A stretch of 64,000 nucleotides of DNA from positions 55 through 64,054 of IMG/VR virus record IMGVR_UViG_3300042541_000805. One strand, written 5' to 3'. The first letter of the stretch is position 1. Every line of letters begins with the position of its first letter. Positions 2,930-49,472 of the stretch are shown here, piece after piece. Below the pieces are notes generated by a model. It was not told where the DNA came from and searched no databases. It saw only the letters and a program-made list of their open reading frames with translations. The stretch is from a virus. Lineage: Duplodnaviria > Caudoviricetes. The position numbers and the translations under genes were made by a program.

Positions 2930-3060
2930 AACAATTCAAATCACTTAGAAGATCATTAAGAAGAGGTAAGGCTAGACTTATCCCTGATGTATTAGGAATG
3001 CGTATGCATATCCAACGCAGAACAGGTAGAGGTACATGGCAGACCGTATCATCAATGTAA
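2926..3060 (+). CDS. Small Arg-rich peptide (44 aa), not in ORF track
   Basis: ATGA overlap with upstream stop; MKQFKSLRRSLRRGKARL... Confidence 0.55.
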   Translation: MKQFKSLRRSLRRGKARLIPDVLGMRMHIQRRTGRGTWQTVSSM

Positions 3061-3082
3061 ATTTATAAACTAAACATATTAT

Positions 3083-4144
3083 ATGAAAATTCACGTACCC
3101 AGAGTAAGATTATCAGCAAAAGAATATGAACTTTTGCAACAACTGAGAGGGAAAGAAATAGAAAGCGAAGAATCACACGAAGCATTAAAAAATTACTGCG
3201 AAGAGAATCAAATTCCATTTACTAACGTGAACCATTATTGGCACAAGGGTAAAAACTTCTCACTACACGTGAAGAATGATTTACAGCCAACATATATGGA
3301 AATGAGAGATGACATCATCTCAGAAATGAAAGCCTATGCACCAGAATATAAAACGATTTCTAGACAATCTACAAATACAGATTCACACCTTTTTGTTGTG
3401 GATCCTGCGGATATTCATGTAGGCAAACTTTCAAAGTCTTTTGAAGTTGGTGCTGAATACAATGCAGAGATTGCTGTTAATAGAGTAAATGAAGGCGTAG
3501 AAGGGCTTGTGCAGAAATCAGCAGGATTCTCTATTGATAAGATATTATTAATTATTGGTAACGATGTATTGCATACCGATAACCCAAAAAGAACGACTAC
3601 AGCTGGTACATCTCAAGATACCGATGGTATGTGGTATGAAAACTTCATTAAAGCTAAACAAATGTATGTGGATATAATCGAAAGGTTATTATCTATAGCA
3701 GATGTGCATATTGTTTTTAATCCATCAAACCACGATTATATGTCAGGGTTCTTCTTGGCTGATTCAATCTATTCTTGGTTTGCTAAATGTGAAAACGTAA
3801 CGTTTGACGTTAGTATCGTACATCGTAAGTATTATAAGTACCATAACAATCTTATTGGTTCTACGCATGGCGATGGAGCTAAAGAGGCAGATTTGCCATT
3901 ATTGATGGCTCATGAAGCATCAGAGCATTGGGCTAGTTGTAAACACAAGTATATTTATACCCACCACTTGCACCATAATAGGTCTAAGGACTATATGGGT
4001 GTTAATATCCAGATCATGAGAAGCCCTAGTGAAGCAGATGCTTGGCATATGAAAGCAGGCTATGCTCATGCACCTAAAGCAGTTGAGGCATTTTTACATC
4101 ATAAGATACATGGTAGGATTGCATCCTTCTGTCATATCTTCTAG
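3083..4144 (+). CDS. Calcineurin-like metallophosphoesterase
   Basis: DIHVG, GNDVLH, SNHD, HGD, HHLHH motifs in canonical order. Confidence 0.85.
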   Translation: MKIHVPRVRLSAKEYELLQQLRGKEIESEESHEALKNYCEENQIPFTNVNHYWHKGKNFSLHVKNDLQPTYMEMRDDIISEMKAYAPEYKTISRQSTNTDSHLFVVDPADIHVGKLSKSFEVGAEYNAEIAVNRVNEGVEGLVQKSAGFSIDKILLIIGNDVLHTDNPKRTTTAGTSQDTDGMWYENFIKAKQMYVDIIERLLSIADVHIVFNPSNHDYMSGFFLADSIYSWFAKCENVTFDVSIVHRKYYKYHNNLIGSTHGDGAKEADLPLLMAHEASEHWASCKHKYIYTHHLHHNRSKDYMGVNIQIMRSPSEADAWHMKAGYAHAPKAVEAFLHHKIHGRIASFCHIF

Positions 4145-4600: not shown

Positions 4601-4738
4601 ATGAAAAAAATGGAATCCAAAAAGGAAGAAATGAAAGAAATGAAAATGTCTAAAAAGGCATACATGGCTAAAGAAATGAAAGAAGGTAAAAAGTCTACCT
4701 CAATGACAAAGGCTGGTAAAAAAATGTACAAAAAATAA
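4601..4738 (+). CDS. Small Lys/Met-rich peptide (45 aa), not in ORF track
   Basis: MKKMESKKEEMKEMKMSKK...; A-rich start context. Confidence 0.6.
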   Translation: MKKMESKKEEMKEMKMSKKAYMAKEMKEGKKSTSMTKAGKKMYKK

Positions 4739-4795: not shown

Positions 4796-4825
4796 AAAAA
4801 GCCTCATAGAGATATGGGGCTTTTT
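4796..4825. terminator. Bidirectional intrinsic terminator
   Basis: AAAAAGCCTCATA-gaga-TATGGGGCTTTTT between convergent genes. Confidence 0.85.
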
Positions 4826-6830
4826 AATTATTAATATCTACCTTATACATCCTAAGCATAGGCTTCTCTACTTTCTCTACTTCCTTCTTTTTAACTACAT
4901 CCTGCCACGCAAGTAATGCATATCCAAATGCCATGAATCCGTCATACGCTGTACGATTGTTTGGATCAAACCTCCTGCATTGGTCAAGTAGCCTTAAACT
5001 ATAGATATGCTCGGTAAACTCATCCATAAACATCTGAGCTATCTCATTCATCCTATTAGCAGCAAACTTATTCTGACCTGATACGCCATACTTATTTTTA
5101 CCTGACTGCGTTACTTTAGTATTCTTAAAATTAGATCTGGGAATAGCAGCATCTGGAGTTTCCTTCAAGTACCCTTCAAATCCCTGCTCTATAAACCAAT
5201 CGACTACTGTAGATGGCGTTGTTTCCGTATTAACCTCACACGAATAAAACACACACGCTTTTAAGTAATCCTCATGTAGCTCATTTACCGTCTTAGGTCT
5301 ATGCAAGTATACCACATCAACTATTGCGGTATTCTCTGGGTCGTTAGGATTATACTTATTAATAATTACAAGTGATCCGTCAGAGGCATCACGCTTATCC
5401 TTAAAGTCTGAAGAAGAAAATGGATCGGCTCCTGCAATATATTCATGTTGCATCATTGGCTTAATCTTACGCATCTCTAATTTCTGTGCATTAGGATTCT
5501 TAGGCATACGAAGGATTTCAAATCTACCATTCTGCACCGGGACTGCTTTCACACTCTTACCATATTCCACCCAAACTAAATCATACATATTCATTAGCGG
5601 TGTAGCCTGCAACTTAATAAAGTTCTCTTGTGCCCTTATTCTTTCCTCATCAAATAGACATACGCCACTCATTGATGATAACGCCTCATCCTCAGTAAAT
5701 GGAAACTGACGGATATGCTCATTGAGTCCTTGAATATCATTATTCTCAATGTATGACCTCCTGATCTCTTCAAGCTCTACCTTAGATTCCTCTACTAAAG
5801 AGAAACCAAACTCATCCATCTTGTATCCATCGTATGCAGGAGAAAAGTATCTGTATACGCCTGAGGCTGTACGACCATTATATAATTTATTAGGATTAGA
5901 TTTCTCCCAAATAATTTTAAATGCATCCCCTGCTTTTTTATTACCTGACGATGTCTTATCATTATCTACCTCTCCGACAGTTGACGTAATATAAGTAATC
6001 CCTACACGCTTACCTAACTTAGTTAAACAAGTCTTTACAACCTCAAAGTATTTTGAGAAGTCTACATCTGCTGACCACTTAGCGGTTTCGTCAATAAACA
6101 AAAAACGCATACGCTGACCATCATAGGAGTTGACTGCTGTATTCTTCCACGACACAATTGTATTCAGCCCTGTCGTAGTTTTTTTAGTAGTAGTACCATC
6201 AGCTTTTTTTGAACGCTTAGGAGGCTCTGCAAAGATTAATTCTCTTACGGGCTTGTCATTACCAGCAACGGTAGGTTTAAGGAAGTCAGGCAGGTTATAA
6301 ACACCATTGACAACCATTTGTGAGAATATCATCCTAGCGTCATCTCCAGTCTTAGAAACAATACCAATTTTTTGGAACTTTTCTGAGATACCAATATAGG
6401 CAGCAATAGATGATGCAACAGAAGATGAACCACGTCTACGGAACTTCATGTACAGCATCCCTAAACATTTATCATCCTTCTCACAGATATCCCAAAAATA
6501 AAATAGTCTTCTATCGGCATCACGAAAGTCAGGGTATGTTCCATCTTCTAGCACCCACCATTGTAAAAAGAAATAGTGTTTCCCGGTTAGGTAGTACGGC
6601 TTACCATTAATCATTAGCCATAAACCATTATCAATCTTATCGAATTCTTTTTCTACGAATAGCTCCTGATCTGATACGGCAAGGTTATCCCAACCATCAG
6701 GTAAGGGTGTACGTTCCCACTTCTGCTGCTTTTTAGATAGCTCATTATTCATAATATCTTTTAGAGCTGGTTGTACAGGCAAAATATATTCAAAGTCCCC
6801 ATATATCTTTTCTCTATTGCGTTTTGCCAT
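4824..6830 (-). CDS. terL: Terminase large subunit
   Basis: 668 aa; KFRRRGSS Walker A variant, FLFIDE Walker B, YITSTV coupling motif, GADP nuclease motif. Confidence 0.9.
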   Translation of the reverse strand: MAKRNREKIYGDFEYILPVQPALKDIMNNELSKKQQKWERTPLPDGWDNLAVSDQELFVEKEFDKIDNGLWLMINGKPYYLTGKHYFFLQWWVLEDGTYPDFRDADRRLFYFWDICEKDDKCLGMLYMKFRRRGSSSVASSIAAYIGISEKFQKIGIVSKTGDDARMIFSQMVVNGVYNLPDFLKPTVAGNDKPVRELIFAEPPKRSKKADGTTTKKTTTGLNTIVSWKNTAVNSYDGQRMRFLFIDETAKWSADVDFSKYFEVVKTCLTKLGKRVGITYITSTVGEVDNDKTSSGNKKAGDAFKIIWEKSNPNKLYNGRTASGVYRYFSPAYDGYKMDEFGFSLVEESKVELEEIRRSYIENNDIQGLNEHIRQFPFTEDEALSSMSGVCLFDEERIRAQENFIKLQATPLMNMYDLVWVEYGKSVKAVPVQNGRFEILRMPKNPNAQKLEMRKIKPMMQHEYIAGADPFSSSDFKDKRDASDGSLVIINKYNPNDPENTAIVDVVYLHRPKTVNELHEDYLKACVFYSCEVNTETTPSTVVDWFIEQGFEGYLKETPDAAIPRSNFKNTKVTQSGKNKYGVSGQNKFAANRMNEIAQMFMDEFTEHIYSLRLLDQCRRFDPNNRTAYDGFMAFGYALLAWQDVVKKKEVEKVEKPMLRMYKVDINN

Positions 6831-10489: not shown

Positions 10490-11480
10490 AAATAAGGGCT
10501 AACTACTTGATAATCATATACCCTCTATATCTTATCTATACCTTAAATGTTATTAATTATTATTTGTAATAGATTATTTTAATGCGTAAGCATTAGAGTA
10601 AGCTATGTCTTATGCTTAAACCTATTATTATATATCCCCTTATTCATAGTCATTCGGTTTTTAGGGGTGGTGCATGATTTGGTTTGGATAACCTGAGTGG
10701 GGTCATATCTCATCTGTAATGATAAAAGTATATGTAAGGTAGGTAATCATACCAACTGATATGTTAAATGTCTTAGAGGGGCTTATTTTAGTTTGTAATT
10801 AGATATTAGGGATTATTAATTTCTTTTTAGAATTAAGTAGTAGGGATTCCACCACCACCAGCCGGCCACCCTGATCCGGTCAGAAATCGTTTTTGAGCAT
10901 CGGAGTGGGGTCAAATTCAGAAGAAAATGTAGCAGTTTTTATGTCAATTCAACCCCCTTGTATAGCAAATATGACTATCCGAATAGTTGTTTTTGGTTTT
11001 GTAACTTGCTGACTATCAATGATTTTTAAATAAATTTCGTGGTGTTAATTATACTACCGATATTTGTGGTGTTGAGTAAGGGATAACACAAGACACAACA
11101 CACGATGGATATCGCTAGTCCTCATATAATCCCAACAATCAATAGGTACTTGTTAATTACACCTTTAAGAATAACTAATTAACCGATTGAGTAAGTCCAA
11201 CACATATGGCATCAACGCATTCAATAAAAACAGCGAAAGCTATCTAATGATGTGATATCAGCAGATGTAGTAAGTAGTGGTAGAATAGGGATTGAAAAGT
11301 TACAACATTGATGAGTCTTCGATATTGTTTTAGTGAGTTGAAATAGGCTCACATTAATGATACAAATACAATAGGTATGGTACAAGCATTGGTTCGATTC
11401 CAATGCCTATTGCTAAAAATATTAGCAAAAGCTGGTAATCAAATACAAATAAATATATCATTTAAACACTCAAAAACAAA
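10490..11480. other. Long non-coding strand-switch region, candidate genome terminus, packaging site or origin
   Basis: About 1 kb without credible ORFs between divergent gene blocks; GC-rich core 10850-10915. Confidence 0.5.
11369..11412 (+). ncRNA. tRNA-like minihelix (T-arm plus closing stem), not a full tRNA
   Basis: GCATTGG-TTCGATT-CCAATGC hairpin adjacent to CAATAG/CTATTG stem. Confidence 0.45.
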
Positions 11481-26966: not shown

Positions 26967-27272
26967 ATGGCATTTATTGCAAACGGAAGACTTAACATAA
27001 GTCAAATTGACAAATCAAAAATCATTGAAGGCAAAAATGGTGCCCAATGGATTAACATTACAATCTCAGCAAATGATGAACCTGATCAGTATGATAACGA
27101 CATCTCGATCACCATTGCTAGATCGGAAGAAGAAAGAAAGAAGGACTCGCCTACTTTTACAAAAGCTGTGTACTTAGCTAACGCTAAAACAACTTGGAGT
27201 AATGGTGTAGCACAAAAGGCTATCAAAAAAGATAAACCTCAAGAGCCAACAGAAGACGTATTACCTTTCTAA
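26967..27272 (+). CDS. Putative single-stranded DNA-binding protein
   Basis: Small beta-rich protein with acidic EDVLPF C-terminal tail. Confidence 0.65.
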   Translation: MAFIANGRLNISQIDKSKIIEGKNGAQWINITISANDEPDQYDNDISITIARSEEERKKDSPTFTKAVYLANAKTTWSNGVAQKAIKKDKPQEPTEDVLPF

Positions 27273-27275
27273 CCC

Positions 27276-27299
27276 TAAGCCCCCTTGATTGGGGGCTTA
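27276..27299 (+). terminator. GC-rich hairpin, probable terminator
   Basis: TAAGCCCCC-ttgatt-GGGGGCTTA. Confidence 0.7.
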
Positions 27300-27318
27300 C
27301 TAATTAAACACAAAGATT

Positions 27319-27924
27319 ATGATAATTGAAGTTATAGAAAAAGATGGTGCTTACAAACAATATGTAGGTAACATCTATAGAGTATTAAAAGAAGAAGCAA
27401 GTCACTATATCGTTAACCATACGATGGGCAATAGAACATACTCTATTGGGATATTAAAAAGCCATTGTGTAGAAGTTTTTGACATTACAGGTGCAGGATT
27501 TCAAATGATTGTAGGTACAACACCTCCTAGCATTAAATTTGATATTCAATCCTCTAAAAAAATAAGAAGATTTCCTAGTGGTGCTGTTCGTTCTGATGAT
27601 ACAGGCAGACCTAGACCTGATTGGGTTTCTGCTCTAGCAATTGAAGCACTTGGAGAACACTTGGCTGGGAACGCTAATGACTTTGGTGCTACCAATTATT
27701 TAAAAGGTATTCCTGTGGATGAATGTTTAGCAAGTTTGATGAGGCACTATTGTGAATATCAGAAGACAGGAAACTTCGTAGACTTAAGGTCACTAGCATT
27801 TAACGCTGTCGCTGCATTACATACCGCCTGCTTGATTAAAGATGGTGACTATAAGGAAATATACCCCAAGACAGAGTTAGTTGATCAGGAGGCTTATTTA
27901 AAGGAGCTTGGTGGTAACATTTAA
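27319..27924 (+). CDS. dATP/dGTP diphosphohydrolase-like (DUF5664-like) domain protein
   Basis: FPSGAVRS...GRPRPD...NYLKGIP...SLMRH...AFN. Confidence 0.7.
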   Translation: MIIEVIEKDGAYKQYVGNIYRVLKEEASHYIVNHTMGNRTYSIGILKSHCVEVFDITGAGFQMIVGTTPPSIKFDIQSSKKIRRFPSGAVRSDDTGRPRPDWVSALAIEALGEHLAGNANDFGATNYLKGIPVDECLASLMRHYCEYQKTGNFVDLRSLAFNAVAALHTACLIKDGDYKEIYPKTELVDQEAYLKELGGNI

Positions 27925-28309
27925 CACCTACCATACATTTGATCTATAGGTGGAATCGACAAGATTTAACACCTGTAAATATTACAAGGCGTGTAATGTC
28001 CTGTTTTTTAACGAATTAACTGGACAAAATGCATGAAACTTTACTAAAAATTCATGCAAACATTTAACAAGCACCAAAAAAACAATTAACAAATGGTGGA
28101 ATAAGTGTTCATTAAAATTGATTGTTCAAGATTCGTGAACAAATAACACCGATAGGGTATAAAATAACTTTGTGGCTCATTTTTAATCCCTATTGGGTGC
28201 AGTTTTGAGCCGTATAGATACGCATTGATACGAATAATGAGCTTTAAAAGTTCCCAATTTGGGAACTCTAGCAATAAAAGTGCATGAAACTTTACTAAAA
28301 CTTCATGCA
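27910..28309. repeat. Array of diverse abutting inverted repeats (operator-like palindromes)
   Basis: About a dozen different palindromes of 12-38 bp; one 29-mer duplicated at 28030-28058 and 28281-28309. Confidence 0.85.
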
Positions 28310-28328
28310 AAATTTATTATATTTGCGT

Positions 28329-28481
28329 ATGGAACAAGCACTTACAATACTTGCACTCTGTGTGCTGATGATATCTACGGCAATATACCTATACCAACCT
28401 AGAATCCTTAAAATAAGGGGTAAATATGTGGTTCAGTATATAGATTCTGAAGGTAACTTTAAGTATGTAAGACTATTCTAA
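28329..28481 (+). CDS. Small membrane protein (50 aa), not in ORF track
   Basis: N-terminal TM segment; ATG 3 nt after TATATTTG 28318-28325. Confidence 0.55.
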   Translation: MEQALTILALCVLMISTAIYLYQPRILKIRGKYVVQYIDSEGNFKYVRLF

Positions 28482-28961
28482 ATCCTTATCAGACTTATAA
28501 GGGATATATTTAGTAACGCCACTAACTTTCTTAGCAACCAATACCTGTTTCCTTTGCTTACCTGTTGACTCATAAGAAACATGAACCCAAGCTGGATTAC
28601 CTTTTTCTGGGAACTCTGCGATTAATTGATCGAATGTTAAGTGGTCTTTAATATAATCGAATACCATCTTATTAGAAACGCCTGTGCCTCTACCATCCTG
28701 ATCTAAGTCAGCTGCCTCACCAGAACAATGTTGTGATGTTGCACTAGATCCCGGTGTAGCATCATTTAAAGCCTTAGAACGATACCCTGAAGAAATCCAT
28801 ATAGGTTTACCAAAATGCTCACGAACTTTATCTAGGACGTTTGTAGCTAGTAATTTTAAGCACTCTAAATGTGCAGGTGTTGGATTGTTTTTGATGCCTA
28901 ATCTTTTTGCAGTTGATGAAGGTGTTAACTCTCCTAGCGTAAAGTATTTTGATAGTTGCAT
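28473..28961 (-). CDS. Endolysin, peptidase M15A family
   Basis: ISSGYRS, SQHCSGEAAD, WVHVS. Confidence 0.92.
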   Translation of the reverse strand: MQLSKYFTLGELTPSSTAKRLGIKNNPTPAHLECLKLLATNVLDKVREHFGKPIWISSGYRSKALNDATPGSSATSQHCSGEAADLDQDGRGTGVSNKMVFDYIKDHLTFDQLIAEFPEKGNPAWVHVSYESTGKQRKQVLVAKKVSGVTKYIPYKSDKDLE

Positions 28962-28964
28962 AAA

Positions 28965-29141
28965 TTACTTTTTGCCTTTTAGAATATCGTCATTCATTAA
29001 ATAGCCAAGAGCAGCGATACCACCACTAATCACTAACATTAAAATAGTTTTAGGTGTTAATTGCTCTTCTAAAGAAATTGTACTCCACGCTGTAAGGACT
29101 GCTAATGTAGCACCCATTAATGTTGTTTTCCAGTTTTTCAT
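28965..29141 (-). CDS. Holin-like protein (58 aa), not in ORF track
   Basis: MKNWKTTLMG..., two hydrophobic segments, basic C-terminus, directly upstream of endolysin. Confidence 0.75.
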   Translation of the reverse strand: MKNWKTTLMGATLAVLTAWSTISLEEQLTPKTILMLVISGGIAALGYLMNDDILKGKK

Positions 29142-29392
29142 TATTTAATAATTTTATGGTAAAAATCTCTAGCCTTTAATATCAATGTCATAAACGCAAT
29201 CATAAAACCGATGAGAATACCCATCTTACTAATTAGATTCCAAAAAGGATTTGTATCTGCAAAAAATGATGACATTTGTATTAAGTTTATTTGATATATT
29301 GCCCATGAAGAAACACCGCTAATTATTCCTATAATCGGCTTATCTCTCAGTTCTTGAGTGAAGAAATCCATATCTTTTAAAAAGGTTGACAT
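29141..29392 (-). CDS. Small membrane protein (holin/antiholin candidate)
   Basis: Two hydrophobic segments; coupled to holin. Confidence 0.55.
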   Translation of the reverse strand: MSTFLKDMDFFTQELRDKPIIGIISGVSSWAIYQINLIQMSSFFADTNPFWNLISKMGILIGFMIAFMTLILKARDFYHKIIK

Positions 29393-29420
29393 TGATTGTT
29401 AAACATATACAAATATAATA

Positions 29421-29447
29421 AAAAAGCCACACATTTCTGCGTGGCTT
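29421..29447 (-). terminator. Intrinsic terminator
   Basis: AAGCCAC/GTGGCTT stem with U tract on minus strand, followed by a TATATTTG box for lysis genes. Confidence 0.75.
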
Positions 29448-29469
29448 AGTTGGGGTCGAGAGAGTACTA

Positions 29470-29928
29470 TTATTTATCCATTACTAAGATAAGTAAGTCC
29501 ATAAACGTAGGATATGACTCCTCAGTTTCTAGTTCTTTTAACTCATCCATAGTAATTTCTTCAAATTCAAACTCAATTTCTTTAGCTAAAAGCTCTTCCA
29601 TTTTGTTTGCAAACTCTACATACTTAGGGTTGAATTCTTTTACTTCTGCCTCTGCATCTACATACATAGGGATTGAAATAGAACCATTTTCTCCTTCAGT
29701 ACCATACTCTTTTATTAACTCTTCTCTCAACTCATCGTTTGCTTTTTTGATGGTTGATAGGGAGTTAAGTAACATTTTCAGTTTAAACTTGGCGATCATC
29801 GGCATTTTATGGCTTAACAAGCCTTTTAAAATCGACTCACCTGTCTGTTGGTTTTGTAACCCGCCAATCTCTGCCTCTAAAGACATGATTTGAGCAAGTT
29901 TTAGCGTAGCTTTCTTCTTTTGATTCAT
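29470..29928 (-). CDS. Acidic helical protein, probable tail-fibre assembly factor
   Basis: REELIKEYG...ELLAKEIE; follows tail fibres. Confidence 0.5.
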   Translation of the reverse strand: MNQKKKATLKLAQIMSLEAEIGGLQNQQTGESILKGLLSHKMPMIAKFKLKMLLNSLSTIKKANDELREELIKEYGTEGENGSISIPMYVDAEAEVKEFNPKYVEFANKMEELLAKEIEFEFEEITMDELKELETEESYPTFMDLLILVMDK

Positions 29929-40313: not shown

Positions 40314-43300
40314 TTAATCATCTTTGCCAAATCCATCTTCATTTGACTTTCTTATATCCTTTCGTCTATTTTTATATTGCTCAGCCTTAATTTCATATAA
40401 GAAACCTTGTGACACTTTATTTAAGTTACCTGCAAAACGAGGGTTATAATTTTTATTCCACAATAATACTGCAAGATTTAAAGTTTGTGTTGCCTGCATT
40501 GCTACAGCTTCCCTACCTAATTCTTTATCAAATTGCTTACCATTAGCCATATCAGATATTATATCAGCATTACTAGAAAGTATACCTCCTAGATATGATA
40601 ATCCAGATATAGCTGATGCAGCTTCTACCCCTGCTACCATTCCAATTTTATATTGGGTTGGGTATGAATTTAAAAATAAATTAGCACTTCTACCTGCTTT
40701 TATAGCAGTATTATATTTTGCCTCATTTTCTTTTTTATTTTCACTAAATTGTCCACTTTTCTTTAAGAAGAATAAACTAAGAGCTACAATAGGTCTAGCT
40801 ATGTTTTGGAATCTACCTAATGACATAGTAGTAATAGCACCTAAAAAGTCTTGTGTAAATGCATCACCAGTTAGCCATTGCTCTTTAAATTGGTTATATT
40901 CCTCAACAAAATATTTAGCATCTAATAATTTTTCTTCATCTCTTTCGCCAATTGCACTCCCTATTGTTTCGATCCCAGCTGTAATAAGTCCAATAGCAAT
41001 ATCCATTGTAGCAATGTATATCATTTGTGATACAACAGACCTTGAAATCCTACCCGCTAAAGCAACTGATTTATTATTTCTATTTCCATTGCCTTTATAG
41101 ATATCAACCATCAATGCCTTTATAACTTCTGAATCATTATTATTATACCCAGTTAAGTTAAAAATTGTCCTCATCCATTTATCTTTCCTAGGTATTTTCC
41201 AACGATTAATAATAGGAATTAACGTAATGTATTCTGCTTTAGATAAAGGGTTTTTAGATATTAAGTTTTTAGCAATAAATAAATCTGCTTCGTCCCTAGC
41301 TTTAGTAAACTCTCTAATGTTATCTAGATAATATTTTTGTGGATTTTCGTTATAAGCATTTGCGTCAAATTTTGTACCTGATATTTTTTCAAAGTTTTTG
41401 ATAAATAATGGTAAGTAAGTTTGAGCCACAATAAGTCTATCTGCCCAAGCTGTTTTAATAGCTTTATTCCCTTGTATCATTTGACCCTGAATACTTGCAG
41501 AAGTTTGACCTGCCGTTTTTTCTGCTTCAGACCATAAGAACTCCCCTCCAAGTTGAGTAGCAATTTCATATGCTGCTTTATCTCTATTATTTAACTCCTC
41601 TATATAATCTGCATCATAAGTGTTTGTTAATTTACCAAACTTTTCCTCAACAAATTTCATCATTATTTTAGCACCTTCTTCAGAGGTAGCTACCTTTTCT
41701 AAGTTAGATAGATAATCAGAAGGTTGTCTAATATCATTTGTAACTAATAGCGTATTTTGAGTATTTAATAAAGTACTGATTAATTTATCACCACCCTTAG
41801 ATTGTCCTACTATAAACTCAGTCTGTAGCATTAAACTTATAGAATCTCTACAAGCCGTTAAGAATCTTTGTTCACCCTCAGACTTAGATTTATTCTCCGC
41901 TAATTTTAATGCATCTATTGAGTTTTCTATAATCCCTTTTAGTGAATACTCCATCATAACATCGTTAGAATGCATTTGTAATATTCTTTCAGGATCAATA
42001 ATTCTAGGTGCTAAACCATCACCAACACGACTATAAGTAGCAGATGAATTTTTCTTTAAGTTTTGAAACGCATCAGAACCTTTGCTTATAGATTCTGCAA
42101 AATCTTTCCCTGTTATATCTTTACCTATAGCCCCTGTAGCATATTGTCTTGGTGCATAATTAATAGCAGCAAGGTATTGCTCACCTTTTTTAATTGAGTT
42201 AATCTCAGTAAAAGATTCGTAAGACTTAATAGTTTTTCTAAATACTTTTATATAATTACCTAGAACCTCATCAATCCCTCCTAATTTATTTATTACTTTT
42301 TCAACTCCTTCTGGTGTATGTAAAATTGAATTTTCATTTCCTACAGAAGGATCAAGTCTTTTAATAATATCATATGCTTTTTCATAATCTTTCATTAAGT
42401 CTTCTATTCTCTTAGTAGCATCATCACTTTTAGCATTTTTTATAAAACTATTTTTGTTTTCAATAACATAGCCAGCATAATCTTTATATTTTGCCTTTTC
42501 TGCATTAGGTAAATTTGATATATAATCTAGTTGTTGTATTAAAATAGCTATTGCGTGTTTAACATCTTGCATAGATTTATCATATCCAACAACCTTACCT
42601 ATATCTGAAGTCTTTAAAGAACCTACTACCTTGCCAAAGAAAACTCCTTTTTTAACTTTTACACTTACTTTAAGTTTATCTACTGCATTACTTATTTTTA
42701 CAAATTCAGTATTATTTTTAGCTGTAATAAAATCTTTTCTCGCTAATGCTGTACCATATGGTTGATATATATTATTGTAATATAAATTCACATCACCCAT
42801 TCCTAAGAATGAATCCACATTATGCTTAGCATGAGTAGTCATGATGTTAGATAAATCAGACTTAGTTTTAGCCCCATCATATTCAGAATCCATTTTTTTA
42901 ATATCTTTAGCAAAAGCAGTATCACCTTCAATAACCTTAGCTAAATCGCTTGTAATATCATTCTTAAATAGAATGGTTGCTACTTTGTTATATGAATCAT
43001 AAATCTCAGGATGTACGTAACCTTCCATTGCCTGTTCTGAATAGAACATAAAATCAGCAATCTCTTCTATTGACATCTCATTTAATACATCTTCAGTAAC
43101 GCTATTAGCAAAGGCAGATAAATCAGAACTTAATAATGTAAATGTATCATCACTAACATCAGCATCTTCTTTAAATTGCTTAGATAATGTGTAGTCTTTT
43201 AAATCAACTGCTATATCAGTAGCATCAGATACTATAGATTCTTTAAATTTAGCTATCTCTTCTCTAATAGGTTCAGATAATTCATCTTCAATACGACCTT

Positions 43301-46300
43301 CTACTTCTGATAATAAAATAGGATCAGCTTTAAAATCTGGTAATATTGAATTTATTTTATTAAGTACTCTATTGTATGCTTTAATAGACCTTTTTAATGA
43401 TAAATAATCATCCAAACTTTCTATCTCTTGCTCTGAATCAATAAATTCATTAATATTATCATATGTTTTATTTAATGATTTTGTAAGGTTCTCTTTAGCG
43501 TATTTAACCTCTACTTCTGTTGCCTGATCTTTATTTATTAAGTTAAGTTCTACGAATTTATTTAAATTTTGATAAATCTCTTTTATGTTCATAAACTTAC
43601 CACCATCAGCAGTTTCAGCACCCAAACTATTATAAGTTCTATCTAACGCTTCTTTTAATGATGTTTGCTCAGCAGATAACACCTCATTTATTTTATCTAC
43701 TAAACTAGCCATATTAGGCTTACTTGTTAATAGTTGTTTAGAAACATCAATAAAGTTATCAATATCATTTTCAGATAAGTATTTTAAATTTATCGTCTTT
43801 AATCTAGCAATCAATTGGGTAGCATTACCTTTATTTTTTGTAGATAATGCCTTTTTAATTTTTTGTGCTGTAATATATTTCTCAATAAATTCAGCTTTAG
43901 CCATTATGCTATCTACTTTATTTATAAATAAGTCTAAATTCTTTGTAGAAGAAACTTTAGCAGCTTTAGTAATAAGACCCTTTAAAATGTTTTGTTTAAC
44001 AATTCCTATTTTTTTAGATTTTAAGTAATCTATAGCTGTATTAAATATTTCATCAGAGATTTTCATCTTAGCCTTAGATGTTTCCCTACCTTCAGCTTTA
44101 CCTTGTTTATAAGATATATTTCTGTCTTTAAGGTAGTCTTCAAAACTCATTGAAACTCTTTCTTTTTCTCCTAAGAATTTAACCTTTGCATCATCATATA
44201 TTTTAGTTAATTCAGTTGGGGTATTTCTACCAAAATCTAAATTAAATTTCTTTTTTATTTCTGCTTTAAAGTTATCTATAGATTTTATAGTTTTGTTTTT
44301 AATTCCTTCATAAGCATATTGAGTTAAGTCATTTGCTAAAGGTGATTCTTTTATAGCCTTTCTAGATTTTTGTTCATCTGTAAGTTCTATCTTTTTTGTT
44401 TCATCCTTTATCTTTCTAAATAAAACTTCTTTCGTTTTTTTACTAGCTTTAAACGAAACTTCTTTAGCCCCTAAGATATCTTTTAATGCACCATCAATAA
44501 ACTCTTCTAGCGTTAAATTTTCAACTTGTTTAGGTGTAAGGTTTTTTAAAGAGGGGAATTTTTCTTGAATATATTTATATAACCCAACTAACCATTCTTT
44601 AAATTTACTCTTTTTAGCTGCATCTGTGATAGATTCTCCTCTATTACCAATTAATATAGCTAATGCTTCTTTTTTGGCTTTTAGAGTATCTCCATACATT
44701 TCAGTAGCATCAGAAAACTCTTTTGTTCCTTTAACTAAATCAAGTCCTTTATTAAATAAAGCAGAGTTACTATTTTCAAGTAAATCAATCCAAATGTGAC
44801 CAACCTCGTGAATAGGAGTATTTAAACTACTAAACTCTGGGTTTAAATATACGTGACCATCTTTTGTTAATCCATATACAACTTCATTTTCTTTTACAAA
44901 TTTCTTAACATTTTCTGAATCTAAAACATCACCCCAAGTATTTTCATCTGTAAAGAATTGCACTTTAGGAAAAGATAATTGTAAATACCCGATAATTTTA
45001 TTTAAATCATTTGGAGATTCTCCAATAGGTTTATTCCTTAATACAACATTGTTTAATGCAGCTGGTAGCCCAGCGGAAACCATTTCATTCCCACTAACTT
45101 TTTTACCTTTTCTTTCAGCAGTTAATAATTTATTTACAATATTTCCATATGCAGCTGGCATTACACTAGCTAAATGTGAAGTTTCTTCCAATACGCCTAA
45201 TCCTTGACCTTTTAAAGCAGCAGGATAATTAGGATGTGTTTTAATTATAACTGGCTTATCTTCACTTATGTCTATACCAACAAAACTAATAATATGTTTA
45301 TCGGGTACATTCTCTAGTGATTTATCAGCTAAATTATCTATTAAGTTACCAAGATTAATTCTTTTTATTTCTGCTTTTGGAAGATCTCCTATTAATGCTT
45401 TTGCAACATCTTTTTTAACAGTTAATTTACTTTCACTTGGTATAAGATCTGCCTTACCACTCGTAAATCTAGATATTAATAATGGTCTAGTCCCAATGTC
45501 TAGTTCGGTTGATCTTTTTAAAAGTTCATCAAAAGATTTTACAGTCTTTAATAACTCTAATATTTTTTTATAACCCCTACTTGAAGCCATATCTGCTGGA
45601 GTAGGATCACCATTTGCTTTATTAATTCTTTTTTGTACTACACTTAATTGGTTTTTAATATCTCCTTCAAGTAAATTAAATGCATTTACTTTATTTTCTT
45701 TAGGGATTACACCATCTGATAAGTTGTCAATTATTTGTCTTATTACTGCTTCATTAGATGACATTGCAGATTTACCCATTTTAACAACAGCAACAGGTAT
45801 ATGATTTTTAGGCAATTTGCCATCTGCCCATAACTTATCAAATAATTCTTGGTTATTATTATAAATACTTTTAGCCACATTTAATGTATCTGTAGCTGTA
45901 TCTGTATCTGTATAAGCCCACGCATATCCAGTATTACCTTTTGAATAAGGGAATAAATTACCTCCATTTAAATTATCAATTTTATTACCAGTTATTGGAT
46001 TTACTACATCACCAGTTGTTAATTCATCTGATATAGTAACCATTATTGGAATACCTTTATAATCAGCTATTGTAACAATATTTGGCTGTTTAGCTAATCC
46101 TTTTCTATTTTTGATAGATTTAATGTCTAATTTACCTTTTGATAAGGTAGACTCAGAAGGATCAACTTCTATATTAACCCCTTCTAATTTATTTATTTCA
46201 TCTACAATACTTTCTGTATCTTCAATTACATATTGTTTTTTACTAAATGCAACATCTTCTTTTTTAGCAATCTTTAATTTTTTACCTTGTGATTTATTAA

Positions 46301-49300
46301 TAACATTTACAATGTCCGCAATTGTATTCTCCAAAGAAAGTATAGCAGCCTTTTTAATTTTTACCTGCTCACTAGTTAGTTTACCCTTAGCTAAATTTAA
46401 TGTAGCTCTCTTTAATCTTTCTCTTTTTTGGTTTAATAAATCAAGAAATTGTTTTTTGTTTAAAGAGTTAGGATCACTTTTATATTTTACTTCAATATCA
46501 CTAAGTGGTATTGGAGCTTCTACTACTTCTTGTTTCTTTTCAGCCAACCCTTTTGGGTTTTCTTTTTCAGCAATTTTAGCTTTTTTAGCAGCTTCTTTTT
46601 CAGCAGCTTTAGCTTGTCTTTTAGCTTCTTTATCAAACTCTCTTTTTTGGATTTTATTCCACTTATCTACAAGACCTTTTTGTGCTTCTGCTTTTGTATC
46701 AAAACCATCTTCCGATAATTCTTCCCCATTTAAATCTTCAGCATTCCAAGTAACATTACCTTCCTCATCAATATTCTTGATTAAATTACCAATTGAATCC
46801 CCATCATCTGTAATTAACTCTACTGCTATTTTTGATATATATTCATACTCTCTCCCATTCTCACCTGTCTTATAATCATAATCATAATCTACAGCATTAT
46901 CTTTTGTAAACTTCTCATGACTTACTTGTTTTTCTGTAATTGGAATATATTGTTCAACTTCAATAGTAGGTTCAGCAACCACTTCAGCAACAGGTTCAGC
47001 AACTTTCTCAGCAACTTCTACTACTTCTTGTTTCTTTTCGCTGCTGACAGGGCGATTGCGATTATCTGCTTTTGGCTTCTCGGCTTCCCTTGTGCTCCCT
47101 TTTCTTTCCCCTGCTTTAGGTTGTCTTTCTTTAGTTCCTTTACGTTGAACGATACCGCCTTGCTCACCGCCTTGGGTGATTGGCTTGATGCTGATTTCAA
47201 TGGCATTTTTTTCTTCTTTTAAGTTAGTTATTTCTTCTTCTGTAAGACCATCAGGTTCTGCTAACATAGCATCAATTTCTGCAATCTTATCTTGTTGTTC
47301 TTCTGTTAATGCTAAAGGAGTAGTTACTTCTTGAGCTAAAATAGCATTTATCTCACCTGTTTTATCTGTGAAAATAGCATTTTCTTTTTCAGTTAATTTT
47401 GATTTTTCTTTTACTTTATTAGCAATATCATTTAATCTTTTTTCTGTTACAATACCTTTGTCAACAAAATTATTATATTCTTTTTCAGAAACTACCTCTA
47501 ATGGTTTACCTTTTTCTAAAGTTGATTCTAGTTTTATCCCTTTAGGTTTATTTAACTCCGCCTCTTCAAATAACATAATTCCTTTCAACGGAGAGTCAAT
47601 AGGAGTTATTTTACCATCTATTTCTTTTTCTACACCATATTCTGTTTTACGATATATAATTTCTTTATTATTTTCTATAGTAAAAGCCTGATCATTATAA
47701 AAATCAATTTGTGCTTCTAAATTAACTCTCTCTAATCTATTTTCTCGTGTTGGGTTTAAATTTAATTCATCTAATTTTGATTGTGCTAAATCAATATTAT
47801 CAATAATTTTTTTAATCTCTACAGGTTTTTCAATAGAAAGTTCAGATATACTTTTGAGTTGGTTATCTCTTTCTGCTATCTGAGATTTTATATCATCAAT
47901 ATTAAATTGAATAGGTGCTAGTAATGCAGGATCAATTCCTTTTGCCTTTTCTTCTTCTTGAGCTAAAGCATCTTCCAATACAGTCTTTTCATTTAATATC
48001 TCTAATGCCTCACTTCTTTTTTCCTCTGAAATATTATCAGGGATTTTAAAGTTATTTGTAGCAGATAAGTTAATATATTGTAATGCCTCATCTGCTTCCT
48101 CTTGAGTTATTTGATTTGATTCAGCTTGTTTTTTAATCTCATCAACCATAACAGGTATAGCTTCAGCTCCATTAGGTGCAGATGCTACAGACGCTAAAGT
48201 TCTTTTATCAGTTAAATCTCCTGATATTACAGAAGCAAATCCACCCATAAATCCACCACCAATAGCTTCTTGACCTGCAGCTTTAATAACTCTGCCCATC
48301 ATGCTACCCATAGAGCCATTATCAAATATTGCTTTACCTTTATATTTGTTAAGAGCCTCTTCAAGACCTATAGTAGCGGCTTCTTGTGATCCTCCTGTAA
48401 GACCTTCTATTAAAGCAGCGTCTGTAATTCTTATCCCAGACTTAATCGCTTTTTTAGAAATGGTATTAATAACATTAGAAGCCTCTTGAGATATTAATTT
48501 AGCTGTTATTTTTTTCCCTTGTGATGCTAATCTATCAATAATTAATCCAGTTAATTTATCACTAAAAGCATTAAATGCTTTTGATTTAGAAAACACTTTA
48601 TCAAGACCGTATTTTTCAAGCATAGAATTAACACCACCTACACTAAGTGCAAACATTGATTTTTCAGTTTCAGATAAATCATTAGCAAATTTTGAGTTAT
48701 TAATACTTTGAAGACCCGAATCATATCCTTGAGCAAATAGCCCAATACCACCGGGAATAAGCATTGCAGGAACAGATTCAGCTAAACCTCCTATAGAGCC
48801 TATAACAAAATCATCATCATATAATTTCTTTTGTTCTTTTGATTGCTCTGCTCCAATGGTTTCACCTATAATCTTACGTAGATAAGGAGTTACGCTATTT
48901 CTAATTGCAATTGCTGTTGCTTCTTTTGGAACATATGAAGGAGCTGCTTGGGTAATAAAATCTGTAGCACCTGCTACTACGCTACCTGTTCCAGTTAAAA
49001 GTTTATTATATAGATATTTACTAAATTCAGCTACACCGCCTGTTGCAGCCATTCCCATACCTTCTACGGGAGCATATTGAGAGCTAACTAAAGGTGCATT
49101 TTTAACTTGCTTTTCAGCTTTTCCACCCATACCCTGTACAGGTGCATACATTGAACTAGCAAGTGGGGAAGGAACGGAGCCATTCGAAGACTCGAACCCA
49201 ATATCTTTTTTTTTTAATCCAAATATATTATTGAAATCTTCTACAGATGAACCTATTTGACTTTTATCAAAGAGGCTTCTATCACCAAACTCAGCTTTAG

Positions 49301-49472
49301 GCGTTAATAAAGCATCATAAAGCGTTTTAGCGTTATCTGCATTTGATAAGATTTTAGCAAATTCTTCTGGGTTTGATCCTATTTGAGATTTATCAAATAA
49401 AGCCCTATTTTGAGTACTTGCAGATGGAGTTACCAACGCATTATAAAGGGTTTTTAAATTTTCATTATTCAT
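40314..49472 (-). CDS. Giant (3052 aa) virion / ejection protein with zincin-like HExxH domain
   Basis: Position after muzzle and pilot-like genes; VYGLTKDGHVYLNP...TPIHEVGHIW metallopeptidase-like motif; own -7 box 49492-49499. Confidence 0.8.
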   Translation of the reverse strand: MNNENLKTLYNALVTPSASTQNRALFDKSQIGSNPEEFAKILSNADNAKTLYDALLTPKAEFGDRSLFDKSQIGSSVEDFNNIFGLKKKDIGFESSNGSVPSPLASSMYAPVQGMGGKAEKQVKNAPLVSSQYAPVEGMGMAATGGVAEFSKYLYNKLLTGTGSVVAGATDFITQAAPSYVPKEATAIAIRNSVTPYLRKIIGETIGAEQSKEQKKLYDDDFVIGSIGGLAESVPAMLIPGGIGLFAQGYDSGLQSINNSKFANDLSETEKSMFALSVGGVNSMLEKYGLDKVFSKSKAFNAFSDKLTGLIIDRLASQGKKITAKLISQEASNVINTISKKAIKSGIRITDAALIEGLTGGSQEAATIGLEEALNKYKGKAIFDNGSMGSMMGRVIKAAGQEAIGGGFMGGFASVISGDLTDKRTLASVASAPNGAEAIPVMVDEIKKQAESNQITQEEADEALQYINLSATNNFKIPDNISEEKRSEALEILNEKTVLEDALAQEEEKAKGIDPALLAPIQFNIDDIKSQIAERDNQLKSISELSIEKPVEIKKIIDNIDLAQSKLDELNLNPTRENRLERVNLEAQIDFYNDQAFTIENNKEIIYRKTEYGVEKEIDGKITPIDSPLKGIMLFEEAELNKPKGIKLESTLEKGKPLEVVSEKEYNNFVDKGIVTEKRLNDIANKVKEKSKLTEKENAIFTDKTGEINAILAQEVTTPLALTEEQQDKIAEIDAMLAEPDGLTEEEITNLKEEKNAIEISIKPITQGGEQGGIVQRKGTKERQPKAGERKGSTREAEKPKADNRNRPVSSEKKQEVVEVAEKVAEPVAEVVAEPTIEVEQYIPITEKQVSHEKFTKDNAVDYDYDYKTGENGREYEYISKIAVELITDDGDSIGNLIKNIDEEGNVTWNAEDLNGEELSEDGFDTKAEAQKGLVDKWNKIQKREFDKEAKRQAKAAEKEAAKKAKIAEKENPKGLAEKKQEVVEAPIPLSDIEVKYKSDPNSLNKKQFLDLLNQKRERLKRATLNLAKGKLTSEQVKIKKAAILSLENTIADIVNVINKSQGKKLKIAKKEDVAFSKKQYVIEDTESIVDEINKLEGVNIEVDPSESTLSKGKLDIKSIKNRKGLAKQPNIVTIADYKGIPIMVTISDELTTGDVVNPITGNKIDNLNGGNLFPYSKGNTGYAWAYTDTDTATDTLNVAKSIYNNNQELFDKLWADGKLPKNHIPVAVVKMGKSAMSSNEAVIRQIIDNLSDGVIPKENKVNAFNLLEGDIKNQLSVVQKRINKANGDPTPADMASSRGYKKILELLKTVKSFDELLKRSTELDIGTRPLLISRFTSGKADLIPSESKLTVKKDVAKALIGDLPKAEIKRINLGNLIDNLADKSLENVPDKHIISFVGIDISEDKPVIIKTHPNYPAALKGQGLGVLEETSHLASVMPAAYGNIVNKLLTAERKGKKVSGNEMVSAGLPAALNNVVLRNKPIGESPNDLNKIIGYLQLSFPKVQFFTDENTWGDVLDSENVKKFVKENEVVYGLTKDGHVYLNPEFSSLNTPIHEVGHIWIDLLENSNSALFNKGLDLVKGTKEFSDATEMYGDTLKAKKEALAILIGNRGESITDAAKKSKFKEWLVGLYKYIQEKFPSLKNLTPKQVENLTLEEFIDGALKDILGAKEVSFKASKKTKEVLFRKIKDETKKIELTDEQKSRKAIKESPLANDLTQYAYEGIKNKTIKSIDNFKAEIKKKFNLDFGRNTPTELTKIYDDAKVKFLGEKERVSMSFEDYLKDRNISYKQGKAEGRETSKAKMKISDEIFNTAIDYLKSKKIGIVKQNILKGLITKAAKVSSTKNLDLFINKVDSIMAKAEFIEKYITAQKIKKALSTKNKGNATQLIARLKTINLKYLSENDIDNFIDVSKQLLTSKPNMASLVDKINEVLSAEQTSLKEALDRTYNSLGAETADGGKFMNIKEIYQNLNKFVELNLINKDQATEVEVKYAKENLTKSLNKTYDNINEFIDSEQEIESLDDYLSLKRSIKAYNRVLNKINSILPDFKADPILLSEVEGRIEDELSEPIREEIAKFKESIVSDATDIAVDLKDYTLSKQFKEDADVSDDTFTLLSSDLSAFANSVTEDVLNEMSIEEIADFMFYSEQAMEGYVHPEIYDSYNKVATILFKNDITSDLAKVIEGDTAFAKDIKKMDSEYDGAKTKSDLSNIMTTHAKHNVDSFLGMGDVNLYYNNIYQPYGTALARKDFITAKNNTEFVKISNAVDKLKVSVKVKKGVFFGKVVGSLKTSDIGKVVGYDKSMQDVKHAIAILIQQLDYISNLPNAEKAKYKDYAGYVIENKNSFIKNAKSDDATKRIEDLMKDYEKAYDIIKRLDPSVGNENSILHTPEGVEKVINKLGGIDEVLGNYIKVFRKTIKSYESFTEINSIKKGEQYLAAINYAPRQYATGAIGKDITGKDFAESISKGSDAFQNLKKNSSATYSRVGDGLAPRIIDPERILQMHSNDVMMEYSLKGIIENSIDALKLAENKSKSEGEQRFLTACRDSISLMLQTEFIVGQSKGGDKLISTLLNTQNTLLVTNDIRQPSDYLSNLEKVATSEEGAKIMMKFVEEKFGKLTNTYDADYIEELNNRDKAAYEIATQLGGEFLWSEAEKTAGQTSASIQGQMIQGNKAIKTAWADRLIVAQTYLPLFIKNFEKISGTKFDANAYNENPQKYYLDNIREFTKARDEADLFIAKNLISKNPLSKAEYITLIPIINRWKIPRKDKWMRTIFNLTGYNNNDSEVIKALMVDIYKGNGNRNNKSVALAGRISRSVVSQMIYIATMDIAIGLITAGIETIGSAIGERDEEKLLDAKYFVEEYNQFKEQWLTGDAFTQDFLGAITTMSLGRFQNIARPIVALSLFFLKKSGQFSENKKENEAKYNTAIKAGRSANLFLNSYPTQYKIGMVAGVEAASAISGLSYLGGILSSNADIISDMANGKQFDKELGREAVAMQATQTLNLAVLLWNKNYNPRFAGNLNKVSQGFLYEIKAEQYKNRRKDIRKSNEDGFGKDD
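47021..47206 (-). CDS. Nested +1-frame small basic protein (MPLK...KQIIAIALSAA type)
   Basis: Complete ATG-to-stop ORF inside the giant gene, A-rich start context, resembles a widespread small phage protein pattern. Confidence 0.7.
   Translation of the reverse strand: MPLKSASSQSPKAVSKAVSFNVKELKKDNLKQGKEKGAQGKPRSQKQIIAIALSAAKRNKK

Follow-up and report, generated by a model that had tools for sequence, protein, structure and literature searches.

The subject of this study is an array of operator-like inverted repeats at positions 27925-28328 of a 64,000-nucleotide stretch of virus DNA (IMG/VR virus record IMGVR_UViG_3300042541_000805, Caudoviricetes); this whole stretch is referred to as the window. 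The described systems closest to the array are transcription-factor decoys, the operators of AbiEi-family antitoxins, and the promoter and stem-loop cassettes of T4-type phages known as PeSLs. In E. coli, datA is the titration site of DnaA. Decoy sites, such as response-regulator decoys and synthetic arrays, are clustered, lack a regulated gene and lower the amount of free protein (PMC8599769, PMC7826281). Antitoxins of the AbiEi family repress their own transcription through inverted repeats that they bind in the promoter; in PabiE of S. agalactiae (IR1/IR2) and Rv2827c of M. tuberculosis (IR1-IR4), the repeats overlap the antitoxin promoter and are bound by the winged-helix antitoxin-repressor (PMC7319586). 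PeSLs precede ORFans in plastic genome regions and mediate insertions and deletions (indels) there (PMC2839356, PMC4122927).

Judging from sequence homology to defence operators, the array is very probably a modular set of operators copied from host anti-phage toxin-antitoxin and abortive-infection promoters. The homology to host defence operators is well supported for at least the units named here C, D and G. The sources would be AbiE systems of three kinds, a PD-Lambda-2-like operon of HigB and a helix-turn-helix (HTH) protein, and a SoFic system, all carried without their cognate genes in an accessory-gene slot. The units are as follows.

27925-27994, + strand: units A and B, the conserved 5' part of a cassette shared with other phages, found in 12-17 of the phage loci fetched
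27995-28028, + strand: unit C, TGTCCtG-N16-CTGGACA, its spacer containing a T-run; putative orphan copy of a type-1 AbiEi (DUF6088)/AbiEii operator, from bacterial intergenic matches
28027-28060, + strand: unit D1, TGCATGAA-N13-TTCATGCA; putative orphan copy of a type-2 AbiEi (DUF6088)/AbiEii operator, from a shared 8-N13-8 geometry
28058-28104, + strand: unit E, A-rich leader in which TTAACA is repeated twice and an ATG stands at the end, from phage comparison
28105-28145, + strand: unit H, GTGTTCAT-N9-TTGTTCAA-gattc-GTGAACAA, where the first and second of the three half-sites flank a near -7 box (TAAAATTG); corresponds to an AbiEi_2-family gene promoter
28174-28211, no strand assigned: unit F, GGCTCA-loop-TGAGCC hairpin or palindrome, with a loop of 4, 14 or 26 nt among phages
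28211-28241, - strand: unit I, two to three CGTATC/GATACG iterons; matches clustered iterons in a SoFic (Fic plus winged-helix) gene promoter
28246-28267, no strand assigned: unit G, AGTTCCCAA-t-TTGGGAACT; putative orphan copy of a HigB/HTH_3 (PD-Lambda-2-like) operator, from bacterial matches
28277-28311, + strand: unit D2, second copy of D, identical to D1 at 33 of 35 nt and 251 bp from it, from self-comparison

Like the known AbiEi operators, the bacterial sites that correspond to C, D and H precede AbiEi-family genes. Unlike them, the phage sites are orphans with no abiEi or abiEii gene, unit C has no promoter box, and the operators of several systems are stacked. The repeat sequences also differ from those of S. 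agalactiae and M. tuberculosis, and it is the Bacteroidota promoter architecture that applies. With PeSLs, the array shares short conserved intergenic stem-loop cassettes before variable ORFans, indels of relatives at the cassette borders, and a form without the DNA between two cassette copies. PeSLs, however, are dispersed as approximately 50 copies of a host-consensus promoter and terminator, whereas the array cassette occupies one locus, most of its units have no consensus promoter box, and units are homologous to host defence operators. By analogy, the array may work like a transcription-factor decoy; known decoys address one factor in the same cell, while the array would offer virus-borne candidate sites to several host defence regulators. 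With no abiE genes, a single locus and mostly no consensus promoter, the array is neither an AbiEi operator in the strict sense nor a PeSL set, and among decoys it ranks as a candidate.

Two kinds of phage element invite a further comparison. Pseudo-ToxI RNA is a phage counter to toxin-antitoxin defence, and together with phage antitoxins and toxin blockers it shares the target class that the array would have; these counter-measures are proteins or RNAs, while the array is DNA. Two viral contigs (L320 and L321) carry a truncated AbiEi behind unit C. Aca-controlled anti-CRISPR promoters reportedly place a strong phage promoter with inverted-repeat operators before anti-defence genes; there the Aca repressor is phage-encoded, unlike the cognate regulators of the array, which the phage does not encode. 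The literature searched, as far as its accessible text goes, contained no report of phage-borne operator arrays or decoys against toxin-antitoxin systems, and 'operator' and 'titrat' have no occurrence in the available text of a November 2026 review (PMC13728456).

Bacterial counterparts of the units

An exact scan for the 20-mer core of unit D in 185,579 genomes (one per species) gave two matches. One was intergenic, in a Flavobacteriales metagenome-assembled genome (MAG), approximately 55 nt upstream of an AbiEi-like (DUF6088)/AbiEii operon, and in the same MAG the G palindrome also precedes a HigB/HTH_3 operon. The other, inside a polC-like gene of an Anaerococcus MAG, was taken as chance. 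Positions 27925-28330 were compared by BLAST with 401 genomes of the order of the Flavobacteriales MAG, and two non-coding 406-bp regions of the same phage (10560-10965 and 420-825) served as controls. A gene was assigned to a match when it started within 250 nt and pointed away from it. The array gave 79 matches in 72 of the 401 genomes, control 10560-10965 gave 40 matches in 37 of 401, and control 420-825 matched in 54 of 391. By the context rule, 14 of the 79 array matches stood before a DUF6088/AbiEi homologue (10 loci), HigB (3) or Fic plus winged helix (1). Re-inspection made this 15 of 79, because the distance rule had passed over locus L162 with its two operator copies. A defence or toxin-antitoxin gene was found at none of the 40 matches of control 10560-10965 and at none of the 30 best loci of control 420-825 (Fisher tests of array versus controls, p = 0.002, 0.001 and 8e-5, with orthologous promoters counted separately and matches not all independent). 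A Pfam scan of the 88 open reading frames (ORFs) adjoining array matches yielded DUF6088 (9), HigB_toxin (3), AbiEi_4 (3), Fic (1) and AbiEii (1), the rest being housekeeping singletons, and no toxin-antitoxin family was detected in 32 + 32 control ORFs.

A class-level sample of 401 genomes added 22 new loci. It repeated the pairings of C with type-1 DUF6088 (L250), D with type-2 DUF6088 (L256) and G with HigB plus HTH_3 (L269), and it added a new one, H before an AbiEi_2 gene (L253). PADLOC recognised the bacterial partners as AbiEi/AbiEii (1e-57 to 1e-85), SoFic (1e-48) and PD-Lambda-2 A/B (1e-42, 1e-46). The units had been predicted from the sequence alone to be host regulatory sites, with toxin-antitoxin systems as the class named first, and this is the class found (AbiE, HigB/HTH and SoFic contexts).

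Unit C was 85-91% identical over 30-37 nt to intergenic sites at nine loci (L133, L135, L136, L142, L145, L147, L150, L162 and L250); in L133, 31 of 34 nt were identical and the T-run of the spacer was kept. The bacterial form is TGTCCAG-N16-CTGGACA, followed 7-8 nt later by a TAnnTTTG box and then by the AbiEi gene (PADLOC: AbiEi 1.6e-57, AbiEii 1.8e-77). The 8-N13-8 geometry of unit D was common to L209, L188 and L256, and a 23-nt identity linked D to L123; all four sites were upstream of type-2 DUF6088 genes. Bacterial D reads TGCATGAA-N13-(T)TCATGCA (PADLOC: AbiEi 1.2e-85). C and D thus have the half-sites and spacing of abiEi-promoter sites at nine and four loci respectively, all upstream of DUF6088/AbiEi genes. 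Unit G has the bacterial form TTCCCA-N3-TGGGAA, followed by a TAnnTTTG box and HigB in L126, L198, L203 and L269, with an HTH_3 gene also present in L126 and L269. All 21 of 21 nt were identical in L269 (PADLOC: PD-Lambda-2_A 3.8e-42, PD-Lambda-2_B 1.2e-46). Unit H had 83% identity across 41 nt with L253, and the half-sites follow one another in the same order in both. L253 has three TGTTCA half-sites with a TATATTTG box between half-sites 1 and 2, and a 332-amino-acid AbiEi_2 gene (PF09952, 1e-26; no PADLOC match) starts 65 nt downstream. Unit I had 89% identity across 35 nt with L134; there a SoFic gene of 489 amino acids (PADLOC 1e-48) begins 8 nt after the last of seven CGTATC repeats.

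The bacterial palindromes lay just upstream of or astride the gene start and the TAnnTTTG motif, which we take to be the Bacteroidota -7 box. The phage copies kept the geometry of C (7-N16-7), D (8-N13-8) and G (6-N3-6), and the three half-sites of H kept their order. In type-1 AbiEi loci of greater divergence, the palindrome layout was the same and the half-sites were different. The palindrome varies with the AbiEi protein, as expected of real autoregulatory repressor-operator pairs.

Some bacterial loci had further features. The AbiE locus L162 (G373:C169) carries one C operator in the promoter and one orphan copy approximately 220 nt upstream. In L135 and L150, the additional palindrome on the upstream side is of another sequence (TGTCAAGTTT...AAACTTGACA). 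In genome G774 (Bacteroidia), an E-like 30-mer occurs twice with similar flanks (L255 and L270), and in genome G785 a 24-mer of unit I occurs twice with identical flanks (L260 and L271); both look like repeated or mobile elements.

The array in the phage genome

In the phage, the regulators and most of the promoter boxes that accompany these sites in bacteria were absent. PF19570 (DUF6088) was not found in the phage genome. Searches by tblastn with AbiEi, AbiEii, HigB, HTH and Fic seeds gave no match in phage loci L002-L122 (E <= 1e-3) and only two chance-level matches in the window (E 0.34 and 0.45), so the position of C and D is not that of a site in an abiEi-abiEii operon promoter. None of the 58 window ORFs scanned belonged to the HTH_3, AbiEi or MarR families; a DnaA_C-type HTH was the sole DNA-binding family, in keeping with the earlier argument that the phage has too few recognisable regulators for so many sites. 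The phage copies of C and G appear to be operators without promoters: a TAnnTTTG box, present in bacteria, followed them in no phage context inspected, and in the window neither a promoter box nor an ORF follows C, G or I. The full box is kept only after D2 (28318-25, then an ORF), while H has a near match. A scan for sigma-70-type promoters found 9 sites versus 10.3 +/- 3.3 in shuffles, which is no better than the shuffles.

The sequence-only reading had listed 11 inverted repeats in 400 non-coding bp, and all 11 were found where it had placed them. Most of the interval is indeed non-coding, except for its first 15 bp, which belong to the upstream gene that ends at 27924. The repeats include TGTAA-ata-TTACA (27974-27986), TGTCCtGTT/AACTGGACA (27997-28026, with one T.T mismatch), the 29-mer TGCATGAA-N13-TTCATGCA (28030-58, with a second copy that carries one substitution 251 bp away at 28281-28309), TTGTTCA-N7-TGAACAA (28122-42), GGCTCA-N26-TGAGCC (28174-28211), CGTAT-ag-ATACG (28211-22) and AGTTCCCAA-t-TTGGGAACT (28249-67). 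Three of the 11 were weak and at chance level: GGTGGTAA/TTAACACC has 7 of its 8 positions paired and shares bases with the stop codon that ends the preceding gene, ACC-gata-gGGT has arms of just 3 bp, and the right arm of CACCA-N17-TGGTG lies at a deletion junction that is not present in the close relative L002. Units A/B hold ATTTAACACC repeats at 27919 and 27964, the palindrome TGTAAATATTACA (27974-86) and ATTACAAGGCGTGTAAT (27981-97); the symmetry of the palindrome is not kept, because relatives read TGCAAATATTACA.

Palindrome density was compared with 300 dinucleotide shuffles (perfect inverted repeats, loops <=30 nt). With arms of at least 5, 25 repeats were observed versus 16.6 +/- 4.1 in shuffles (reached by 10 of 300); with arms of at least 6, 9 versus 4.6 +/- 2.2 (17 of 300); and with arms of at least 8, 3 versus 0.38 +/- 0.66 (3 of 300), two of these three being the duplicated unit D. 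The array is therefore denser than shuffled sequence, as had been claimed, but the excess is modest (approximately 2 standard deviations), and density was dropped as the main argument. That the units are not chance follows from their recurrence in other phages and in bacterial promoters and not from density.

The virus record comprises 64,054 bp and is rated complete, so the window is nearly all of it, and the phage recurs in lake-water metagenome runs. The array is the spacer in which a + strand early/replication module (approximately 11.4 kb to 27,924) and a - strand late module (63.7 kb to 28,473) converge. The first encodes one protein with a DnaA C-terminal HTH domain, one with a dATP/dGTP diphosphohydrolase N-terminal domain and one that is resolvase-like (DUF1064); the second encodes portal, virion structural and tail-fibre proteins and an M15 endolysin, and the large terminase subunit is elsewhere (4,824-6,830, - strand). 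The dATP/dGTP diphosphohydrolase N-terminal domain is associated with adenine-replacing phages. The genes bordering the array are the following.

27319-27924, + strand: last gene of the early/replication module, 201 amino acids, left boundary (dATP/dGTP diphosphohydrolase N-terminal domain PF18909, 1.7e-7; phrog_18716)
28318-28481, + strand: ORF of 50 amino acids with a hydrophobic N-terminus, convergent with the endolysin gene, ATG at 28329, preceded by a TATATTTG -7-type box (28318-25); the ORF is kept in L002/L039 and L023 (95% identity)
28473-28961, - strand: endolysin (peptidase M15), last gene of the late module, right boundary (phrog_894, 5.9e-36; PF08291, 1.6e-17)

The box and the 50-amino-acid ORF after D2 are the only unit-promoter-gene layout left in the array. 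The ATG of unit E opens an ORF of only 3 codons (28093-28104), because a 206-nt segment with a 63-amino-acid gene has been deleted relative to L002. The array locus is a gene-poor form of a variable accessory-gene slot. INPHARED phage records gave no match to 27000-29500. Among the 58 window ORFs scanned were one C5 cytosine methylase, one Tad2-like (Thoeris anti-defence) domain, one Rad52/22-family protein, two Cpn10 (GroES-like) ORFs and one glucosaminidase, a set that amounts to an anti-defence and recombination tool-kit. An N4-like virion RNA polymerase using hairpin promoters was considered and dropped; the 3052-amino-acid protein of the virion module (40314-49472, - strand) had no PHROG family at E <= 1e-3.

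Possible decoy function and alternative explanations

We favour the reading in which the sites matter as protein-binding sites, because operators of several unrelated defence systems are conserved in a phage family, because they are stacked, shuffled and mostly without promoters, and because the cognate regulators are not phage-encoded. In an infected host of the Flavobacteriales type, AbiEi, a HigA-like protein and the winged-helix part of SoFic would bind the array sites on phage DNA, and we consider such binding of host regulators somewhat probable. Phage replication would multiply the sites, and low-abundance autorepressors would be drawn off their own promoters onto phage DNA. Defence operons would then be de-repressed or otherwise unbalanced to the benefit of the phage, for instance by replenishing a labile antitoxin after host shut-off. 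At D2 with its -7 box, one small phage gene may also be coupled to AbiEi occupancy. Titration by replicating phage DNA would be the simplest consequence of units that bind protein, although we hold it to be plausible and not yet probable; the same grade applies to titration as the selected function of the array. A broader proposal is more tentative still. In it, Bacteroidota phages would carry evolvable operator libraries, in which orphan autorepressor-antitoxin sites for several host systems (AbiE subtypes, PD-Lambda-2/HigBA and SoFic) act as a replication-amplified DNA sponge that disarms or rewires defences, and the gain and loss of units tracks the host repertoire.

Several observations weigh against the decoy function or the homology behind it. 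Two exact matches of the D core are about the number expected by chance from our base-composition estimate, and that scan alone proves nothing. The raw number of BLAST matches is uninformative (72 of 401 genomes is not far above the controls), because the controls also match many genomes, and 53 of the 79 array matches lay in long open frames and are noise (30 of 40 for control 10560-10965). H and I each have a single bacterial locus. The G matches L155 and L169 and the D-like match L267 do not adjoin toxin-antitoxin genes. Recurrence of the palindromes in bacterial promoters, proposed at the outset as a check, was borne out in defence or toxin-antitoxin promoters for C, D, G, H and I, but failed for A/B, E and F, which had no recurrent counterpart among the approximately 800 genomes of the two samples. 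In L002, unit I is replaced by unrelated sequence; this segment (L002 5088-5206) matched in 23 of 401 genomes, and no toxin-antitoxin or defence family adjoined the 20 loci inspected, where one neighbour of 182 amino acids had no Pfam family. The position of C-D-E directly before an ORF in 25 phage stretches, together with the box and ORF after D2, fits regulated promoters as well as decoys. Finally, the benefit of titrating AbiEi is not obvious, as antitoxin sequestration could also free toxin.

The alternative that survives best holds that the units are borrowed promoter-operator-leader cassettes, PeSL-like, which drive the small accessory genes of the slot under host antitoxin occupancy or simply as strong promoters. 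Titration would then be a side effect, and the cargo genes would have been deleted here with the cassettes left standing. We regard this as possible but rather unlikely. The D 20-mer core was present in 32 viral stretches of IMG/VR, and in 25 of its 33 occurrences it belonged to one cassette at least 90% identical, in which hairpin C, D and the A-rich leader E follow one another and end at a start codon, at a fixed short distance before an ORF. The first ORFs after C-D-E fell into 14 unrelated clusters. In L002, the closest relative, the 63-amino-acid gene stands exactly after E and was lost from the window through the 206-nt deletion at a microhomology (AATG); in L023, two small genes lie between the two D copies; and D2 with its TATATTTG box and conserved 50-amino-acid ORF, as well as the near-consensus box of H, agree with such a role, as does the arrangement of PeSLs themselves. 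Against it stand the absence of a TAnnTTTG box downstream of C, D1 and G in any phage copy inspected and the back-to-back units without an ORF between them (H-F-I-G-D2 in the window, C...F-I-D-G in L040). A cassette profile searched with nhmmer against the 64 kb matched only 27987-28102 (E 7e-28) and 28277-28301 (E 1e-5), the rest having E > 2; this is a single locus, unlike the approximately 50 PeSLs per genome. There is also no clear reason to keep accessory genes under host defence repressors. A reading as a PeSL-like promoter/terminator cassette without a host link was the first to be adopted and was downgraded after the bacterial matches.

Comparison with relatives agreed with the suggestion, made from the duplicated unit, that the array gains and loses its parts unit by unit: units were lost, gained and reordered among related phages. 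The order was C...F-I-D-G in L040, D-E-G in L025, C-D-E-F-I in L026 and tRNA-D in L017. The G 19-mer occurred in 13 viral stretches, the right arm of the D palindrome was missing in many phage copies, and the loop of F was AAAG in L026 and L040 and 14 nt long in L034 and L035. The genes neighbouring the cassette in the 25 stretches were mostly unrelated to those of the window; immediate neighbours were shared only with the close relative L002/L039 and with L023, and ten loci had a homologue of one window protein with 39-47% identity. In L040 (approximately 5600-5700) and L038 (approximately 4640-4700), the large terminase gene stands downstream of a unit array (C...F-I-D-G). In L040, this array is followed by approximately six direct repeats of the TTTAGTAAA type, which may form a packaging site. 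Contigs of four metatranscriptome runs cover the array, including pieces from relatives. As such contigs show neither strand, ends nor true transcription, they were used only for one form: in one contig of a marine run, 28058 is linked to 28313 through 4 other letters, and the 254 bp between D1 and D2 are lacking. It is a relative or a recombinant.

A second alternative, which we think unlikely, takes the units as scars or recombination anchors. Mobile toxin-antitoxin and defence cassettes would have inserted into a hotspot and decayed to their 5' regulatory ends, and the shared modules of 30-40 nt would persist and spread as homology for cassette exchange and not as protein sites. An IMG/VR search for relatives of type-1 AbiEi gave none with a single protein and nine loci with an alignment query. 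Viral contigs L314-316 carry a complete AbiEi/AbiEii behind such an operator; L320 and L321 (3001-3291) combine unit C with a -7-type box and an AbiEi cut down to 96 amino acids (the winged-helix part only), without AbiEii; and L322 (approximately 3001-3144) has unit C followed by an AbiEi remnant of 48 amino acids. This series of complete, truncated and vestigial genes illustrates how scars would arise. The truncated AbiEi of L320 and L321 could be a dominant-negative regulator of the phage or an intermediate of decay towards an orphan operator. Recombination at the locus also fits the scar explanation, since D1 and D2 are direct repeats that bracket a variable segment missing from the joined contig, the microhomology deletion removed the 63-amino-acid gene, and the phage encodes the Rad52/22-family (annealase-like) protein. 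On the other hand, no toxin-antitoxin gene homologue was found within approximately 2.5-5 kb in the 32 D-core stretches or in 12 stretches with the G/H motif (L272-L283), the cassette is at least 90% identical where the flanking genes have diverged beyond recognition, and the half-sites retain their geometry, which would soon be lost from neutral scars.

Ordinary junction elements (terminators acting in both directions, an origin of replication whose iterons are TTTAACA, or a small non-coding RNA) are a very improbable explanation, even though the array lies at the meeting point of + and - transcription and at the cumulative GC skew maximum (a peak expected there because the transcription direction switches), holds one terminator-like site (- strand, 28309-28281) and three of the 12 ATTTAACA copies of the whole window within 150 bp, and is covered by RNA-library contigs, which prove neither transcription nor transcript ends. 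Terminator-like sites numbered 3 in the 2.5 kb of 27000-29500 versus 1.3 +/- 1.2 in shuffles, and most hairpins had no U-tract; no match to an Rfam family (Rfam 15) was found in the array at E <= 1, and no tRNA or tmRNA was called in the window. This upholds the initial preference for binding sites over terminators. No initiator gene adjoins the array, and in relatives the near-identical cassette sits inside + strand gene rows beside unrelated genes, a misfit with a single-initiator origin.

If the conservative readings apply, the array records that phage accessory-gene slots have exchanged sequence with the regulatory ends of AbiE, HigBA-like and SoFic loci, and predicted operators for several Bacteroidota AbiEi subfamilies that are still uncharacterised can be taken from it directly. 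The decoy function would mean more. To our knowledge, the phage counter-defences described so far consist of protein or RNA; an array of DNA in which several host defence operators are brought together would be a different anti-defence principle, readable from sequence. Under this nucleic-acid mechanism, the units of a phage would report the defence systems of its hosts, giving a new handle on host and defence prediction for uncultured phages.

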